This document shows, piece by piece, positions 4,595-50,061 of a stretch of 64,000 nt of DNA. Position 1 is the stretch's first letter. Each line of letters begins with the position of its first letter. Under the pieces are notes generated by a model. The model was not told the DNA's origin, ran no database searches, and saw nothing but the letters and a program-made list of their open reading frames with translations. A program made the translations under genes and the position numbers. Origin of the DNA: Escherichia coli (GTDB taxonomy: Bacteria; Pseudomonadota; Gammaproteobacteria; Enterobacterales; Enterobacteriaceae); assembly GCF_003334815.1 (NCBI RefSeq), contig NZ_QOWO01000013.1. The stretch is one strand, 5' to 3'.

Positions 4595-4684
4595 TTACTT
4601 CAGGTATTTCAGAACAGCATCAAGCAGTTGCAGTGCTGCAACAATGAGTTTGAGGATAAGAATGGCGATATCCACCAGGTTCAT
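4595..4684 (-). CDS. tisB: Type I toxin TisB, 29 aa
   Basis: Hand translation of the minus strand gives MNLVDIAILILKLIVAALQLLDAVLKYLK followed by TAA; too short for the ORF track. Confidence 0.9.
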   Translation of the reverse strand: MNLVDIAILILKLIVAALQLLDAVLKYLK

Positions 4685-4918: not shown

Positions 4919-4938
4919 TACTGTATAAATAAACAGTA
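4919..4938. promoter_or_regulatory. LexA box between divergent tisAB and istR
   Basis: taCTGTataaataaACAGta fits the CTGT-N8-ACAG SOS-box consensus. Confidence 0.8.
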
Positions 4939-4984: not shown

Positions 4985-5128
4985 AAATACGTCAAAATTC
5001 GTGCCGAAATTGCGCGTTCTGCGCGGAACACGTATACTTTCAGTGTTGACATAATACAGTGTGCTTTGCGGTTACCAGCCGCAGGCGACTGACGAAACCT
5101 CGCTCCGGCGGGGTTTTTTGTTATCTGC
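4985..5128 (+). ncRNA. istR: Antisense sRNA IstR (IstR-2 / IstR-1); 5' end approximate
   Basis: Plus-strand terminator at about 5098..5122; contains the 22-nt repeat complementary to the tisAB leader; position divergent from tisB. Confidence 0.55.
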
Positions 5129-7510: not shown

Positions 7511-8101
7511 ATGATCACCGTTGCCCTTATAGACGATCACCTCATCGTCCGCTCCGGCTTTGCGCAGCTGCTGGGGCTGGAACCTGATTTGCAGGTAGTT
7601 GCCGAGTTTGGTTCGGGGCGCGAGGCGCTGGCGGGGCTGCCGGGGCGCGGTGTGCAGGTGTGTATTTGCGATATCTCCATGCCCGATATCTCCGGTCTGG
7701 AGCTGCTAAGCCAGCTGCCGAAAGGTATGGCGACGATTATGCTCTCCGTTCACGACAGTCCTGCGCTGGTTGAGCAGGCGCTTAACGCGGGGGCACGCGG
7801 CTTTCTTTCCAAACGCTGTAGCCCGGATGAACTCATTGCTGCGGTGCATACGGTTGCCACGGGCGGCTGTTATCTGACGCCGGATATTGCCATTAAACTG
7901 GCATCCGGTCGTCAGGACCCGCTAACCAAACGTGAACGCCAGGTGGCGGAAAAACTGGCGCAAGGAATGGCGGTGAAAGAGATTGCCGCCGAACTGGGCT
8001 TGTCACCGAAAACGGTACACGTCCATCGCGCCAATCTGATGGAAAAACTGGGCGTCAGTAACGACGTAGAGCTGGCGCGCCGCATGTTTGATGGCTGGTG
8101 A
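7511..8101 (+). CDS. uhpA: Response regulator UhpA (NarL/FixJ family)
   Basis: 196 aa; receiver domain plus LuxR-type HTH. Confidence 0.95.
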
Positions 8102-9603
8102 TGAAGACGTTGTTCTCCCGCTTAATTACCGTTATTGCCTGCTTTTTTATCTTCTCTGCCGCATGGTTTTGCCTGTGGAGTATCAGCCTGCATCTGGTTG
8201 AGCGCCCTGATATGGCGGTGCTGTTATTTCCGTTTGGTCTGCGTCTGGGGCTAATGCTGCAATGCCCGCGCGGATACTGGCCCGTATTGCTGGGCGCGGA
8301 GTGGCTGCTGATTTACTGGCTAACGCAGGCGGTCGGTTTAACCCATTTTCCGTTATTGATGATCGGTAGTTTACTGACGTTACTGCCCGTAGCGCTGATC
8401 TCGCGCTATCGCCATCAGCGTGACTGGCGCACCTTGCTGTTACAGGGGGCGGCGTTAACGGCGGCGGCGTTGTTGCAGTCGCTGCCCTGGCTTTGGCACG
8501 GCAAAGAGTCGTGGAATGCGCTGTTGCTGACTTTAACTGGCGGCCTGACGCTGGCCCCGATATGTCTGGTGTTCTGGCACTATCTCGCCAATAACACCTG
8601 GCTGCCGCTCGGTCCGTCACTGGTTTCTCAGCCAATCAACTGGCGCGGGCGACATCTGGTCTGGTACTTGCTGCTGTTTGTTATCAGTCTCTGGCTCCAG
8701 TTGGGATTGCCGGACGAACTGTCGCGCTTTACGCCATTCTGTCTGGCGCTGCCGATTATCGCGCTGGCCTGGCACTATGGTTGGCAAGGGGCGCTGATTG
8801 CGACGTTGATGAACGCCATCGCGCTGATCGCCAGTCAAACCTGGCGCGATCATCCGGTGGATTTATTGCTCTCGCTGCTGGTGCAAAGTCTGACAGGGTT
8901 GTTGCTTGGCGCTGGCATCCAGCGGTTGCGTGAACTTAACCAGTCGCTGCAAAAGGAACTGGCGCGCAATCAGCATCTGGCTGAACGGTTGCTGGAAACC
9001 GAAGAGAGCGTGCGCCGTGATGTGGCGCGTGAGCTGCATGATGATATCGGTCAGACCATCACTGCTATTCGTACTCAGGCGGGCATTGTTCAGCGGCTGG
9101 CGGCAGATAACGCCAGCGTGAAGCAGAGCGGGCAGCTCATCGAACAACTATCGCTGGGCGTTTACGACGCGGTGCGCCGTTTGTTGGGTCGGTTACGTCC
9201 GCGCCAGTTGGATGATCTCACCCTGGAGCAGGCCATCCGCTCACTGATGCGGGAAATGGAGCTGGAAGGGCGCGGTATTGTCAGCCATCTCGAATGGCGA
9301 ATCGATGAATCAGCGTTAAGCGAAAACCAGCGCGTGACGCTGTTTCGTGTCTGCCAGGAAGGGCTGAACAACATTGTGAAACATGCTGATGCCAGCGCGG
9401 TCACCCTGCAAGGCTGGCAGCAGGATGAACGGTTGATGCTGGTTATTGAAGACGATGGCAGCGGTTTGCCGCCGGGTTCCGGGCAACAAGGTTTTGGCCT
9501 CACCGGAATGCGCGAGCGCGTAACGGCGCTGGGTGGCACATTACACATTTCCTGTCTGCACGGCACGCGTGTCAGCGTTTCTCTACCTCAACGCTATGTC
9601 TAA
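8101..9603 (+). CDS. uhpB: Sensor histidine kinase UhpB
   Basis: 500 aa from the ATG that overlaps the uhpA TGA by 1 nt (TGATG); N-terminal membrane domain plus HisKA_3/HATPase. Confidence 0.9.
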
Positions 9604-9612
9604 GGTTTGATG

Positions 9613-10932
9613 ATGTTGCCGTTTCTGAAAGCGCCTGCCGATGCGCCATTAATGACTGATAAATATGAAATTGATGCCCGCTATCGCTACTGGCGTCGGC
9701 ATATTCTGCTGACCATCTGGCTGGGTTACGCGCTGTTTTACTTCACGCGGAAAAGTTTTAACGCCGCCGTACCAGAAATCCTTGCTAACGGCGTGCTCAG
9801 CCGTAGCGATATCGGCCTGTTAGCGACCCTGTTTTACATTACCTATGGCGTGTCGAAGTTTGTCTCCGGCATTGTCAGCGATCGCTCAAATGCCCGTTAT
9901 TTTATGGGGATAGGGCTTATCGCCACGGGCATTATCAACATTCTGTTTGGCTTCTCGACGTCGCTATGGGCGTTTGCCGTGCTCTGGGTGCTGAACGCCT
10001 TTTTCCAGGGCTGGGGTTCACCGGTGTGTGCGCGTCTGTTAACGGCCTGGTATTCACGTACCGAGCGCGGCGGTTGGTGGGCATTATGGAACACGGCGCA
10101 TAACGTCGGCGGCGCACTCATTCCCATTGTGATGGCAGCGGCTGCGCTGCATTACGGCTGGCGTGCCGGGATGATGATTGCTGGTTGTATGGCGATAGTC
10201 GTGGGGATTTTTCTCTGCTGGCGGCTACGCGATCGCCCGCAGGCGTTAGGTTTACCGGCGGTCGGTGAATGGCGACACGACGCGCTGGAAATTGCTCAAC
10301 AACAAGAAGGGGCAGGGTTGACGCGTAAAGAGATCCTCACCAAATATGTGTTGCTGAATCCGTATATCTGGCTGCTTTCGTTTTGCTATGTGCTGGTCTA
10401 TGTGGTCCGGGCGGCGATCAACGACTGGGGCAATTTGTATATGTCCGAGACACTGGGCGTCGATCTGGTCACGGCGAATACGGCAGTGACGATGTTTGAA
10501 CTGGGCGGATTTATCGGTGCGCTGGTAGCCGGTTGGGGCTCGGACAAATTGTTTAACGGCAACCGAGGGCCGATGAATTTGATTTTCGCCGCCGGAATTT
10601 TGCTTTCAGTCGGCTCCCTGTGGCTGATGCCATTTGCCAGCTACGTGATGCAGGCAACCTGCTTCTTCACCATTGGTTTTTTTGTCTTTGGCCCACAGAT
10701 GTTAATCGGTATGGCGGCGGCAGAGTGTTCCCACAAAGAGGCGGCAGGGGCGGCGACGGGGTTTGTCGGCTTGTTTGCTTATCTGGGGGCGTCGCTTGCT
10801 GGTTGGCCGCTGGCGAAAGTACTCGATACCTGGCACTGGAGCGGATTTTTTGTGGTTATCTCTATCGCCGCCGGGATTTCCGCACTGCTGTTACTGCCCT
10901 TTTTGAACGCCCAGACACCGCGCGAAGCGTGA
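9613..10932 (+). CDS. uhpC: Glucose-6-phosphate sensor / MFS protein UhpC
   Basis: 439 aa from the ATG at 9613; the ORF track's 9607 start is a TTG two codons upstream. Confidence 0.9.
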   Translation: MLPFLKAPADAPLMTDKYEIDARYRYWRRHILLTIWLGYALFYFTRKSFNAAVPEILANGVLSRSDIGLLATLFYITYGVSKFVSGIVSDRSNARYFMGIGLIATGIINILFGFSTSLWAFAVLWVLNAFFQGWGSPVCARLLTAWYSRTERGGWWALWNTAHNVGGALIPIVMAAAALHYGWRAGMMIAGCMAIVVGIFLCWRLRDRPQALGLPAVGEWRHDALEIAQQQEGAGLTRKEILTKYVLLNPYIWLLSFCYVLVYVVRAAINDWGNLYMSETLGVDLVTANTAVTMFELGGFIGALVAGWGSDKLFNGNRGPMNLIFAAGILLSVGSLWLMPFASYVMQATCFFTIGFFVFGPQMLIGMAAAECSHKEAAGAATGFVGLFAYLGASLAGWPLAKVLDTWHWSGFFVVISIAAGISALLLLPFLNAQTPREA

Positions 10933-10987
10933 TGCATCTCACCTTTTCACTTCATATCCGGCAAAACTAAGAAATTTTCCAGGTTTT

Positions 10988-11008
10988 GCCTGGACGCTAT
11001 CTCAGGCC
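10988..11008. promoter_or_regulatory. Candidate UhpA-binding inverted repeat in the uhpT promoter
   Basis: gcctgg-N9-caggc dyad about 60 nt upstream of the uhpT start; a tacaat -10-like hexamer lies downstream. Confidence 0.4.
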
Positions 11009-11069
11009 TGATTTGCTGCTGATTTTTACAATGCATGCCTCACGCAGGTATTCATTTCAGGAGTAACCC

Positions 11070-12461
11070 ATGCTGGCTTTCTTAAACCAGGTTCGCAAGC
11101 CGACCCTGGACCTTCCGCTCGAAGTGCGGCGCAAAATGTGGTTCAAACCGTTCATGCAATCCTACCTGGTGGTCTTTATCGGCTACCTGACGATGTACCT
11201 GATTCGCAAGAACTTTAACATCGCGCAGAACGATATGATTTCGACCTACGGGTTGAGCATGACGCAGCTGGGGATGATCGGCCTGGGTTTCTCCATCACT
11301 TATGGCGTGGGTAAAACGCTGGTTTCCTACTACGCCGACGGCAAAAACACCAAACAATTCCTGCCGTTCATGCTGATCCTCTCTGCTATTTGTATGCTGG
11401 GCTTCAGTGCCAGTATGGGCAGCGGCTCGGTTAGCCTGTTCCTGATGATTGCCTTCTACGCCTTAAGCGGCTTTTTCCAGAGTACCGGCGGTTCGTGCAG
11501 TTACTCCACCATCACCAAATGGACGCCGCGTCGTAAACGCGGGACATTCCTCGGTTTCTGGAATATTTCTCACAACCTTGGCGGTGCAGGCGCAGCAGGT
11601 GTGGCGCTGTTCGGGGCAAATTACCTGTTCGATGGCCATGTCATCGGCATGTTTATCTTCCCGTCGATTATCGCGCTGATTGTCGGTTTTATCGGCCTGC
11701 GTTACGGCAGCGACTCCCCGGAATCTTATGGCCTCGGCAAAGCTGAAGAACTGTTCGGCGAGGAGATCAGCGAAGAGGACAAAGAGACAGAATCTACCGA
11801 TATGACCAAGTGGCAGATCTTTGTTGAGTATGTGCTGAAAAACAAAGTGATCTGGCTGCTGTGCTTCGCCAACATTTTCCTCTATGTGGTACGTATTGGT
11901 ATCGACCAGTGGTCAACCGTATACGCGTTCCAGGAACTGAAACTCTCTAAAGCGGTGGCGATTCAGGGCTTTACGCTGTTTGAAGCTGGTGCGCTGGTCG
12001 GTACGCTGCTGTGGGGCTGGCTCTCTGACCTGGCGAACGGTCGCCGTGGCCTGGTGGCCTGCATCGCGCTGGCGCTGATTATCGCCACGCTCGGTGTGTA
12101 TCAACATGCCAGTAACGAATATATCTATCTGGCTTCTCTCTTTGCGTTGGGTTTCCTGGTCTTTGGCCCGCAATTGTTGATTGGTGTGGCTGCTGTTGGC
12201 TTTGTACCTAAAAAAGCGATTGGCGCTGCCGATGGTATTAAAGGCACCTTTGCTTACCTGATTGGTGACAGCTTTGCCAAGTTAGGTCTGGGAATGATTG
12301 CCGATGGGACGCCGGTATTCGGCCTTACCGGCTGGGCAGGCACCTTCGCCGCGCTGGATATCGCCGCGATTGGTTGTATCTGCCTGATGGCGATAGTGGC
12401 GGTAATGGAAGAACGCAAAATCCGCCGCGAGAAAAAAATTCAGCAGTTGACAGTGGCATAA
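11070..12461 (+). CDS. uhpT: Hexose-phosphate:phosphate antiporter UhpT
   Basis: 463 aa MFS organophosphate antiporter. Confidence 0.95.
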
Positions 12462-21920: not shown

Positions 21921-22015
21921 TGGCGGAAGATCACAGGAGTCGAACCTGCCCGGGACCGCTGGCGGCCCCAACTGGATTTGAAGTCCAGCCGCCTCACCGG
22001 AGACGACGATCTTCC
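21921..22015 (-). tRNA. selC: tRNA-Sec (selenocysteine, anticodon UCA)
   Basis: Reverse complement reads GGAAGATCGTCGTCTCCGGTGAGGCGGCTGGACTTCAAATCCAGTTGGGGCCGCCAGCGGTCCCGGGCAGGTTCGACTCCTGTGATCTTCCGCCA. Confidence 0.95.
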
Positions 22016-39368: not shown

Positions 39369-39658
39369 GGTTCTCTCCCTAAAAATCTGTCTGGCAGGGT
39401 AGCGATTTGTGCGCATTGTCACGATTGAGATTTTTTAAGGGGAGGGGAAATTGATAACTTGTAGTTATGTGAAATCGCTATTTTCTGTAGCAGAGATGCA
39501 TTCTTCTGACTTCTTGTCTGAGAAAATGCATAAGAAAAAATAGGTTAAAACTGAGGGGGGAAAAGAAAGGTGCAATATTTAGCCATTGTGTTCACTGCAC
39601 CTGGACCTTGGCTTACGCATCGGGTGTCTCAATCAACAAAAAGAGTTTTTAGTTTCTG

Positions 39659-40483
39659 CTATTTCTTCTCTGTAATTTTTACACTGTTTTCCAACTGCTT
39701 GATGCTGACCTGCGGGGTCGGCAACTCCTCAGGCATGGTTCCGCCAAGTTCCTGAATGGTTTGCCTCACCTTGCGACCCACGTCAAAGTGTGTGGTGTTT
39801 GCTTGCTGTTTTGAATTCACGCCATCCCGCTTGAGTTTTTCTTCTGTTTGGGTAGCTCGAAAGAGATTAGCCGCCAGTTCTGTTGAACCCATATGATCCA
39901 GGATCTTCTGATTCTTTTTCAGCCCCTTCCGCTGATGAATAGCTTTCTGATCTAATCCACCATACAGCCCCTGGTAACCATGATTCTGAAATATGGCGAA
40001 ATCAGTAGCTGTCGCTACCCCAGCTTGCTGTGCTGCCTCAACCAATTGTTTGTTATGTTCTTTCAACTCATTTCTCAGAAACAGACGCTTTTCGTCTTCA
40101 CGAAGTTGCTTAAATGCTTCATCGTCAGCAAGCTCCTGCCGTCGGGTCTGGATAGCAAAATAAGTCTGCCCTGCCGCAATGACCGGTTTCGCAGGGTCGC
40201 CGTTTTGTACTACCAGGTAACAGGCATAGCGGGAGAGTACGATGTCTTTTAATGCTCTTTTGGCATTTGAGCCAATTTTGACCATATCGAGGATCTCCTC
40301 GAAATGGTCATCAATTGTGTGACCACTGTTCTCACAGGCTTCTTTGGCGCGCGTTAATACAGGTATAAAGTGACGATACTCTGAATAACCCAGTAGTTTC
40401 CCAAGTTGTCTTGCTGACCATTGTTCTGCTCCGTTTGCATTAATCAGTTTTATCTCTTCAAAAGGTTGATGATGTTCGTTCAT
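39659..40483 (-). CDS. dinD: DNA-damage-inducible protein D
   Basis: 274 aa from MNEHHQPF...; LexA box in its promoter. Confidence 0.85.
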   Translation of the reverse strand: MNEHHQPFEEIKLINANGAEQWSARQLGKLLGYSEYRHFIPVLTRAKEACENSGHTIDDHFEEILDMVKIGSNAKRALKDIVLSRYACYLVVQNGDPAKPVIAAGQTYFAIQTRRQELADDEAFKQLREDEKRLFLRNELKEHNKQLVEAAQQAGVATATDFAIFQNHGYQGLYGGLDQKAIHQRKGLKKNQKILDHMGSTELAANLFRATQTEEKLKRDGVNSKQQANTTHFDVGRKVRQTIQELGGTMPEELPTPQVSIKQLENSVKITEKK

Positions 40484-40526
40484 TGCCCACTCCATGTGAT
40501 ATCAATTGCAAAGAAAGTAAATCTGT

Positions 40527-40546
40527 AACTGTATTTATATACAGTT
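40527..40546. promoter_or_regulatory. LexA box upstream of dinD
   Basis: aaCTGTatttatatACAGtt fits CTGT-N8-ACAG; about 45 nt upstream of the dinD start. Confidence 0.75.
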
Positions 40547-40703
40547 GTGAGTATCTCACGTTCTCAGTGTGCTGGGCAAAAAAACATCGCAAAATCTGGA
40601 GCAGGCACGCAAAACAGAATTGAATGTTGCGGGGAAGAAAAATGCCGCTCTGTTTGAGTGGCGGCATTTGTGAAGGCGGAAAAGTAAGAATTGGCGTTAC
40701 GAG

Positions 40704-50022: not shown

Positions 50023-50061
50023 CAGTATTCAGGTAGCTGTTGAGCCTGGGGCGGTAGCGTG
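50023..50061 (+). promoter_or_regulatory. JUMPStart element containing the ops site (RfaH loading)
   Basis: Exact GGCGGTAGCGTG at 50050..50061 in the waaQ leader. Confidence 0.8.

Follow-up and report, generated by a model that had tools for sequence, protein, structure and literature searches.

Our analysis of dinD (pcsA), a gene on the minus strand of a stretch of Escherichia coli DNA (contig NZ_QOWO01000013.1; 64,000 nucleotides, the whole of which we call the window), leads us to propose, tentatively but as a serious possibility, that DinD, a DNA-binding protein resembling DdrC of Deinococcus radiodurans, acts on DNA that is duplex or broken and there clears RecA or keeps it off, and that its gene, which is under LexA control in E. 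coli, came from a mobile cassette of restriction-modification (R-M) operons.

In this proposal DinD would be a two-domain protein, with a winged helix of the Bro-N/KilA-N type followed, at the C-terminus, by a bundle of four helices. LexA would repress the gene via a box at 40527..40546, so that DinD would be made only after DNA damage, when LexA is cleaved. The protein would then bind duplex or broken DNA and remove or block RecA on duplex (postsynaptic) DNA, limiting recombination once strand exchange ends. The gene itself would not be ancestral SOS equipment; it would be a mobile cassette of one gene, closely related to genes that R-M operons carry as accessories (mostly of type I, and usually beside hsdM), where the same activity may act on the breaks and recombination intermediates that restriction makes. 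E. coli would have gained the cassette between yicC and yicG, and put it under LexA.

Identity, SOS control and reported activity of dinD

The features on which the argument draws are these:

39659..40483, minus strand: dinD (pcsA) coding sequence, 274 amino acids (aa) and stop; from the open reading frame (ORF), RefSeq identity and NF008573
40199..40456, minus strand: Bro-N/winged-helix N-terminal domain region, aa 10-95; from Pfam PF02498 and the AlphaFold2 (AF2) model
39749..40099, minus strand: predicted C-terminal DdrC-like helical bundle region, aa 129-245
40527..40546: LexA (SOS) box AACTGTATTTATATACAGTT, with a perfect CTGT-N8-ACAG core, 43 nt upstream of the dinD ATG
40223..40463, minus strand: dimorphic patch of about 240 bp, residues 12-83; DNA identity 55-63%, against 97-100% in the flanks
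39543..40703: dinD-specific segment of 1161 bp; from the empty-site alignment
39558..39601, minus strand: putative terminator, a hairpin (GGUGCA...UGCACC) followed by UUUCUUUU; from RNA folding and direct reading of the sequence

The ORF runs from an ATG at 40483 to a TAG stop at 39659 and its product begins MNEHHQ. An in-frame ATG 12 nt further upstream, at 40495, would add four residues (278 aa); we prefer the start at 40483 because GGAG precedes it by about 8 nt, because homologues start at the same place and because the RefSeq protein has 274 aa. The 1.3-kb dinD region is 100% identical in DNA to annotated dinD in several E. coli chromosomes, where the gene order is ligB-yicG-dinD-yicC-rph-pyrE, and the protein scores 488.1 bits against the NCBIfam equivalog NF008573 (‘DNA damage-inducible protein D’; curated cutoff 242 bits), with residues 1-274 lying on profile positions 6-279 of 288. 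A sequence-only reading of this DNA, made without database searches, had named the gene dinD, and these matches establish that it is the DinD/PcsA of E. coli (NF008573, PRK11525), with complete DNA and protein identity, the same locus and the same LexA box.

That reading had also placed a strong LexA box just upstream of the gene, and we confirmed this: beside its perfect core and its closeness to the ATG, the box departs from the 20-mer consensus TACTGTATATATATACAGTA at three positions only, and the window holds just one further LexA-type site (4919..4938), with none in 100 dinucleotide-preserving shuffles. The gene with its SOS box is an already known feature, dinD being a textbook SOS gene; PMC6590174 counts it among the genes of E. 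coli whose SOS box is known, and dinD-lacZ (dinD::lacZ) is a standard SOS reporter.

As to activity, Uranga et al. 2011 is cited in PMC4129442, PMC10602874 and PMC4849656 as reporting that DinD, by acting on RecA filaments at the postsynaptic stage, inhibits RecA-mediated strand exchange, and the last of these three papers, where it deals with RecA filament removal, groups DinD with RecX. Because this activity has been published, the function of DinD is poorly defined biologically but is not unknown; the earlier view that its role was poorly defined stands with this qualification. Among dinD mutants the one phenotype known is that of pcsA68, a cold sensitivity which depends on recA (PMC2577331).

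RecX, DinI and PsiB resemble DinD in being small, damage- or transfer-induced modulators of RecA filaments. However, we saw no relation of sequence or fold between them and DinD, which, unlike these three, is built, as predicted, like a DNA-binding protein and reportedly has postsynaptic filaments as its target.

Predicted fold of DinD and its likeness to DdrC

Pfam recognises a single domain in DinD, Bro-N (PF02498; E 4.6e-7), at aa 10-105 and model positions 1-88 of 96. PHROG 8036, which also matches, has no assigned function, and a sequence search of the PDB brought up no solved structure related to DinD. The earlier remark that the protein lacks an obvious catalytic motif is thus upheld, as searches of Pfam, NCBIfam, PHROGs and the PDB gave it no clear enzymatic annotation. 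A match of aa 50-91 to RNA polymerase subunit N (E 0.006 to 0.7) was weak and was treated as chance.

The AF2 model of DinD, built from a 44-sequence alignment, has a mean pLDDT (predicted local distance difference test) of 90.9. It places a winged-helix domain at aa 1-95 (helices 24-30, 36-52 and 85-93, with a beta hairpin at 61-83), then a long helix at aa 100-120. Helices 129-153, 159-173, 200-219 and 225-245, among which two short ones are interspersed, make up the C-terminal bundle, and a last helix spans aa 261-273. As modelled, this is the two-domain fold of DdrC (PDB 7QVB, 7UDI, 8U0G), consisting of a winged helix, a linker helix and a four-helix bundle, and when the DinD model is set against an AF2 model of DdrC (pLDDT 88.7) the predicted secondary-structure elements correspond one-to-one over the whole length.

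Profile comparison supports this weakly. We collected the DdrC family by profile search (144 proteins, all from Deinococcota) and made a DdrC profile from an alignment of 28 full-length members. In an hmmsearch of the PDB with the DinD profile, DdrC appears as a sub-threshold match (E 0.9) of DinD 161-249 to DdrC 142-226, while hhalign pairs DinD 130-245 with DdrC 114-224 at E 1.6e-3 and a probability of 16%, or at E 3e-4 and 39% with a shallower DdrC alignment, both alignments spanning 104-111 columns. The hmmsearch and hhalign alignments are in the same register, and five family-invariant residues of DinD (R137, D196, E202, L203 and H232) fall on family-invariant residues of DdrC (R121, D175, E181, L182 and H211, in the same order). 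The Asp, Glu and His among these pairs are invariant or close to it in both families; DdrC mutagenesis, as described in the available text of PMC11347143, was aimed at Arg and Lys residues.

In the reciprocal test the DdrC model, searched against AFDB50, retrieved first the DdrC family and then proteins of 240-300 aa annotated as ‘prophage antirepressor’, KilA-N or Bro-N, with full-length alignments at E 1e-11 to 1e-7; a Planktothrix ‘putative DNA-damage-inducible protein D’ was among the matches (E 6.8e-8). At E 0.001 or below the DdrC model has 186 AFDB50 hits; some of the relatives with such annotations come from Deinococcus and are only 18-30% identical to DdrC. From these predicted structures we conclude that a single superfamily, in which a KilA-N/Bro-N domain is joined to a helical bundle, takes in both DinD and DdrC, and that within it DdrC is not the specific sister of DinD; DdrC is the only member of the superfamily with a solved structure.

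What is published of DdrC shows the kind of activity that DinD may share. DdrC is a homodimer, asymmetric and domain-swapped, which binds pairs of nicks or of double-strand breaks (PMC11347143, PMC9303277). According to PMC11347143, its C-terminal domain holds the core duplex-binding residues R128, R142, R164 and K170, nick pairs or double-strand ends are recognised with high affinity only if the N-terminal domain is present, its binding compacts and circularises damaged DNA, and UV (ultraviolet) resistance requires both activities. Duplex- or broken-DNA binding of this kind by DinD would fit the RecA biochemistry, since such a protein could plausibly compete with RecA on postsynaptic DNA. Break sensing and the asymmetric swapped dimer have been demonstrated for DdrC only, and DdrC differs from DinD in being controlled by DdrO/IrrE and not by LexA, in being confined to Deinococcota and in having, in the material examined, no link to restriction genes. 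The two DdrC structure papers, which do not mention DinD, state that homologues of DdrC cannot be identified beyond Deinococcus and that it lacks structural homologues; we found no DinD-DdrC link in the literature searched, leaving aside one 2013 review of radiation-response gene expression which names both.

The Bro-N domain, and the AFDB neighbours annotated as prophage antirepressor or KilA-N, could also be taken to mean that DinD is a transcription factor or antirepressor of that type, which binds DNA sites or a repressor and so alters expression after damage. The two kinds of protein are indeed alike in the N-terminal domain, the AFDB neighbours of DdrC being two-domain proteins of 240-300 aa, and in two of the homologous loci considered below CI/LexA-like and ImmA-like regulators adjoin dinD. 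However, the AFDB annotations are names and not tested functions; the C-terminal domain of DinD belongs to no Pfam family and DinD is far more conserved; it is linked to restriction operons and not, as the antirepressors are, to prophage immunity regions, and E. coli dinD is located in no prophage. Embedding in an operon, with hsdM and hsdS on either side and stop codons that overlap start codons, is unlike the placement of a prophage-switch regulator, and the published activity, as cited above, concerns RecA filaments. We therefore consider a regulatory role of this kind quite improbable.

Restriction-modification operons and the accessory status of dinD

At E 1e-30 or below the DinD family comprises 631 clusters at 50% identity. 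Proteins 74-84% identical to DinD are found in Pectobacterium, Yersinia, Aeromonas, Pseudomonas, Limnobacter and Chlorobiaceae, and homologues 56-76% identical are spread across many phyla and one archaeon (Methanoperedenaceae). A scan of one genome per species confirmed at least 599 loci, and gene contexts were counted on the best 80 of these, which have 56-74% identity to E. coli DinD and come from Proteobacteria, Bacteroidota, Bacillota, Chlamydiae, Spirochaetes, Planctomycetota, relatives of Cyanobacteria, Saccharibacteria and Methanoperedenaceae. Such a pattern of identity across phyla indicates frequent horizontal transfer under strong purifying selection.

We called ORFs in the 80 loci and, taking two annotated loci as seeds, detected hsd genes by iterated profiles for HsdM, HsdS and HsdR. 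In 34 of the 80, dinD has an hsd gene no more than 300 bp away, and in every case the two share a strand; type I R-M genes are present in 20 of the 44 loci that have at least 4 kb of flank on both sides. Genes are mostly arranged as hsdM-dinD-hsdS-hsdR, and a YgjP-like gene often comes next. The Limnobacter dinD, whose product is 76% identical to that of E. coli, overlaps the start codon of hsdM, and in Chlorobiaceae the gene stands between hsdM and hsdS. The gonococcal NgoAV type I locus also has a DinD gene (bioRxiv 10.64898/2026.01.10.698759), and a survey of inverting-hsdS loci describes a DinD/RhuM gene between the core genes (PMC9881135). RhuM, which is likewise often found inside type I loci, was considered as a relative of DinD and rejected (hhalign E 0.23).

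The company of dinD extends to other defence systems. At L057 (5209..11542) a DinD homologue is flanked by an adenine methyltransferase on one side and a restriction endonuclease of the BPTD_3080 type on the other, a type III-like R-M arrangement, and the same downstream gene recurs at L053, where DinD (7968..8828) is followed by a restriction-like gene (8835..11522). In a DISARM-like locus (L084, 5107..10396) the homologue is found between the helicase DrmD and a methyltransferase. AbiE genes, integrases and the CI/LexA-like and ImmA-like regulators are further neighbours. In streptococcal satellite phages the homologue lies directly beside int, a setting of which PMC4129442 also speaks. Orphan copies among housekeeping genes occur as well, for example after gyrB in Pseudomonas. 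On a Thiothrix plasmid the gene is next to parB, which recalls the location of psiB.

Several further observations concern these loci. A YgjP-like/SprT-like metallopeptidase gene follows hsdR in most dinD-bearing type I loci (L002 18853..19605; 16 ORFs in 14 of the 80 species loci, for example L020, L032, L040 and L047), and a conserved ORF of about 190-197 aa heads dinD-bearing type I operons (L002 9411..10001, L003 1770..2363, L004 7460..8038); its HsdS-like signal is faint, and in many of the other loci, too, the HsdS profile marks an ORF, which lies immediately upstream of hsdM. In the Limnobacter operon a pair formed by a SMODS nucleotidyltransferase and SLATT (CBASS-like) is inserted between hsdS and hsdR (L002 13585..15492). 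A 405-aa DinD variant with a second N-terminal DinD-like stretch (L012 10001..11218, L013 1054..2271) lies between the genes for the large and small ribonucleotide reductase subunits, with spacers of a few bases. Two ‘Campylobacter phage’ records of 174 kb each (MG065686.1, 50367..51188; MG065691.1, 122935..123756) encode a protein 100% identical to E. coli DinD, and may contain E. coli DNA in their assemblies.

A DNA-binding DinD would fit this R-M company, because restriction enzymes make double-strand breaks that are processed via RecA. For an R-M system such a protein may serve in restriction alleviation, in protection of self DNA, in blocking the recombinational rescue of cut phage DNA, or in making post-segregational killing stronger.

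Alternatively, DinD could be an anti-phage effector in its own right, either stand-alone or of a guard type that is checked by, or cooperates with, the restriction complex, as PrrC is at the EcoprrI type I locus, acting when phage infection or anti-restriction is sensed; inhibition of RecA would then be a side effect of DNA binding. DinD matches the PADLOC model PDC-S13 (PDLC04919) over its full length (402 bits, aa 2-274), and DinD homologues lie in R-M and defence loci. The presence of dinD inside type I, type III-like and DISARM-like loci and beside AbiE genes, its carriage as cargo next to int in streptococcal satellites, and the presence/absence polymorphism and N-terminal dimorphism that we describe below for E. 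coli, the latter expected of conflict genes, would all suit an effector. DinD also matches positions 6-267 of a 717-position PADLOC ‘type I specificity’ model, whose length is consistent with a DinD-HsdS fusion; such a fusion was not confirmed, as none of the longer homologues matched the HsdS part of that model, and in homologues of 340-500 aa we detected only DinD or a duplicated N-terminal domain and no enzyme domain. PrrC-type genes are similar in that a gene other than hsd is lodged among hsd genes which run on its own strand. PrrC combines an anticodon nuclease with an ATPase domain, whereas no nuclease or nucleoside triphosphatase domain, nor any other enzymatic or toxic domain, was found in DinD. 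Moreover PDC-S13 is only a candidate, of which we found no mention in the literature searched, and the copy in the window differs from PDC-S13 in being an orphan between housekeeping genes under SOS control; E. coli tolerates SOS-induced DinD, dinD::lacZ being a routine reporter, and conservation at 56-76% identity between phyla would be uncommonly strong in a defence effector that evolves fast. On balance we regard an effector role as unlikely.

SOS control, for its part, does not travel with the gene. We scanned upstream of 87 homologues (the 80 species loci and seven further loci) for LexA boxes and Cheo boxes and found LexA boxes at the E. coli alleles and at one Paraburkholderia locus only, with one Cheo-like site; the Paraburkholderia box is about what chance would give (background 16 per 3671 windows). 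SOS control as a trait of the DinD family was therefore rejected, and since the box is confined beyond chance to the E. coli alleles, both of which have an identical LexA core at the same distance, the core of the second allele being placed 62 nt upstream, control by LexA is a local, lineage-specific acquisition.

Within E. coli dinD is an accessory gene and is trimorphic, existing as two N-terminal alleles and as absence. Most of a 1.3-kb dinD query was present in 4581 of 5426 complete genomes, and about 700 genomes matched only its first ~140 nt, which adjoin yicG. The three states are distributed as follows:

Window-type N-terminal patch: 1899 of 5426 genomes (35%)
Alternative N-terminal patch: 2814 of 5426 genomes (52%)
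No dinD between yicG and yicC: about 713 of 5426 genomes (about 13%), by difference

The window carries the K-12-type N-terminal allele. The two allelic proteins are 84% identical and every difference falls within residues 12-83, in the N-terminal domain; the dimorphic patch bears, as judged from the sequence, the signature of recombinational replacement. An occasional dinD pseudogene occurs.

Where dinD is missing, an unrelated 77 bp takes the place of 39543..40703 and homology to the window stops at 39542, with yicG and yicC adjacent and 250-251 bp apart (empty sites L015 8970..9220 and L016 8970..9219). The segment so defined holds dinD, its LexA box and promoter and a terminator-like hairpin on each side, and reaches up to the yicC stop codon; its GC content is 0.41-0.47, against 0.52-0.57 in the flanks. 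No direct repeats or att sites were evident at its boundaries when empty and occupied sites were compared. Between dinD and yicG, at 39497..39532, there is an imperfect inverted repeat of 15 bp, ATGCATTCTTCTGAC...GAGAAAATGCAT; because the dinD-less sites have it too, it belongs to the region upstream of yicG and not to the cassette. In some E. coli a P4-type integrase island (integrase, AlpA-like, primase/D5 helicase) sits between yicC and dinD, and in Pectobacterium yicC is followed by an integrase and then by dinD and AbiE genes (islands beside dinD: L006 3704..9617, L009 7703..8962). The region 3′ of yicC has the look of a hotspot for integration.

These integrase islands, the low GC content, the lack of dinD in about 13% of genomes without evident cost, the occasional pseudogene and the weak null phenotype might be read to mean that dinD in E. 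coli is left over from a mobile island, has no function and keeps a LexA-repressed promoter by chance. We think this very unlikely: the gene is intact in about 87% of the 5426 genomes, the C-terminal two thirds are near-invariant between the alleles and the LexA box is identical in both, and identities of 74-76% to homologues in other phyla imply strong purifying selection.

Returning to our proposal of a DdrC-like protein from a mobile R-M cassette, a number of points count against it. On the structural side, hhalign gives a probability of only 16-39%, so that homology between DinD and DdrC is marginal at the sequence level; bundles like the C-terminal one are common, and DdrC is about as near to many KilA-N/Bro-N proteins as it is to DinD, so that the link is one of superfamily and not a specific pairing. 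The AF2 models are monomeric, whereas the function of DdrC needs the asymmetric domain-swapped dimer. Of the DNA-contact residues of DdrC, K170 alone aligns with a conserved basic residue of DinD (K189), other conserved basic residues nearby being K186, R133 and R137; because K170 is the only one with so clear a counterpart, it is by inference that we carry the function of DdrC over to DinD. On the genetic side, about 55% of homologous loci have no R-M operon, the copy in the window is itself an orphan, with yicG and yicC as neighbours and no restriction genes nearby, and dinD is dispensable, its deletion having no strong phenotype (PMC2577331).

Other elements of the window and the biology of DinD

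The second LexA box of the window, TACTGTATAAATAAACAGTA (two mismatches), adjoins an Rfam match to istR at 4990..5119 (150 bits); this is the tisB/istR locus. The sequence-only reading had described the window as rich in damage-responsive loci on account of dinD, tisB/istR and recG; of these, tisB/istR likewise has a LexA box, and recG has none in the window. The two SOS loci share a repeat:

39692..39707 (plus strand) and 4615..4630 (minus strand): exact 16-nt repeat CAACTGCTTGATGCTG; none expected by chance

Because of it the dinD mRNA has, at its 3′ end, a stretch that is complementary to the tisAB RNA. The complementarity has been described before, and tisAB-dependent cleavage of dinD mRNA was not detected (PMC2577331).

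The terminator-like hairpin lies about 60-100 nt past the dinD stop and we grade it as tentative, because a simple terminator scan missed it; that scan gave one terminator-like site inside dinD, on the opposite strand, and a sigma-70 consensus scan gave no site near dinD, both results being uninformative. No RNA family was found by Rfam within or adjoining dinD. Elsewhere in the window, and unrelated to dinD, Rfam finds tRNA-Sec (selC, a common island integration site) at 21925..22015 on the minus strand, and a JUMPstart element at 50023..50061 on the plus strand.

For more than 40 years dinD has served as an SOS marker while its biological role has stayed unsettled. To this we add the trimorphism of the gene in E. 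coli, the embedding of its relatives in R-M operons across phyla, the lineage-specific nature of its SOS control and a reciprocal link of predicted fold to DdrC. DdrC was described as unique to Deinococcus; it has many structural relatives among the Bro-N/KilA-N proteins of mobile elements. A wider reading, which we regard as doubtful, makes DinD and DdrC homologues within a single widespread, mobile-element family of lesion-binding proteins with the KilA-N/Bro-N plus helical-bundle build; R-M systems (type I, type III-like and DISARM-like) would carry DinD to manage their own breaks and RecA intermediates, E. coli would have recruited a copy to the SOS response, and the two alleles would represent different specificities for lesions or partners.

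Because DinD shares its predicted fold with a characterised sensor of DNA breaks, the DdrC assays on nicked, linear and supercoiled DNA are directly applicable to it, and the natural trimorphism of E. coli provides comparison strains ready for use. That near-identical proteins are translationally coupled to hsdM points to restriction alleviation and phage defence, beside SOS repair, as processes in which DinD may take part.

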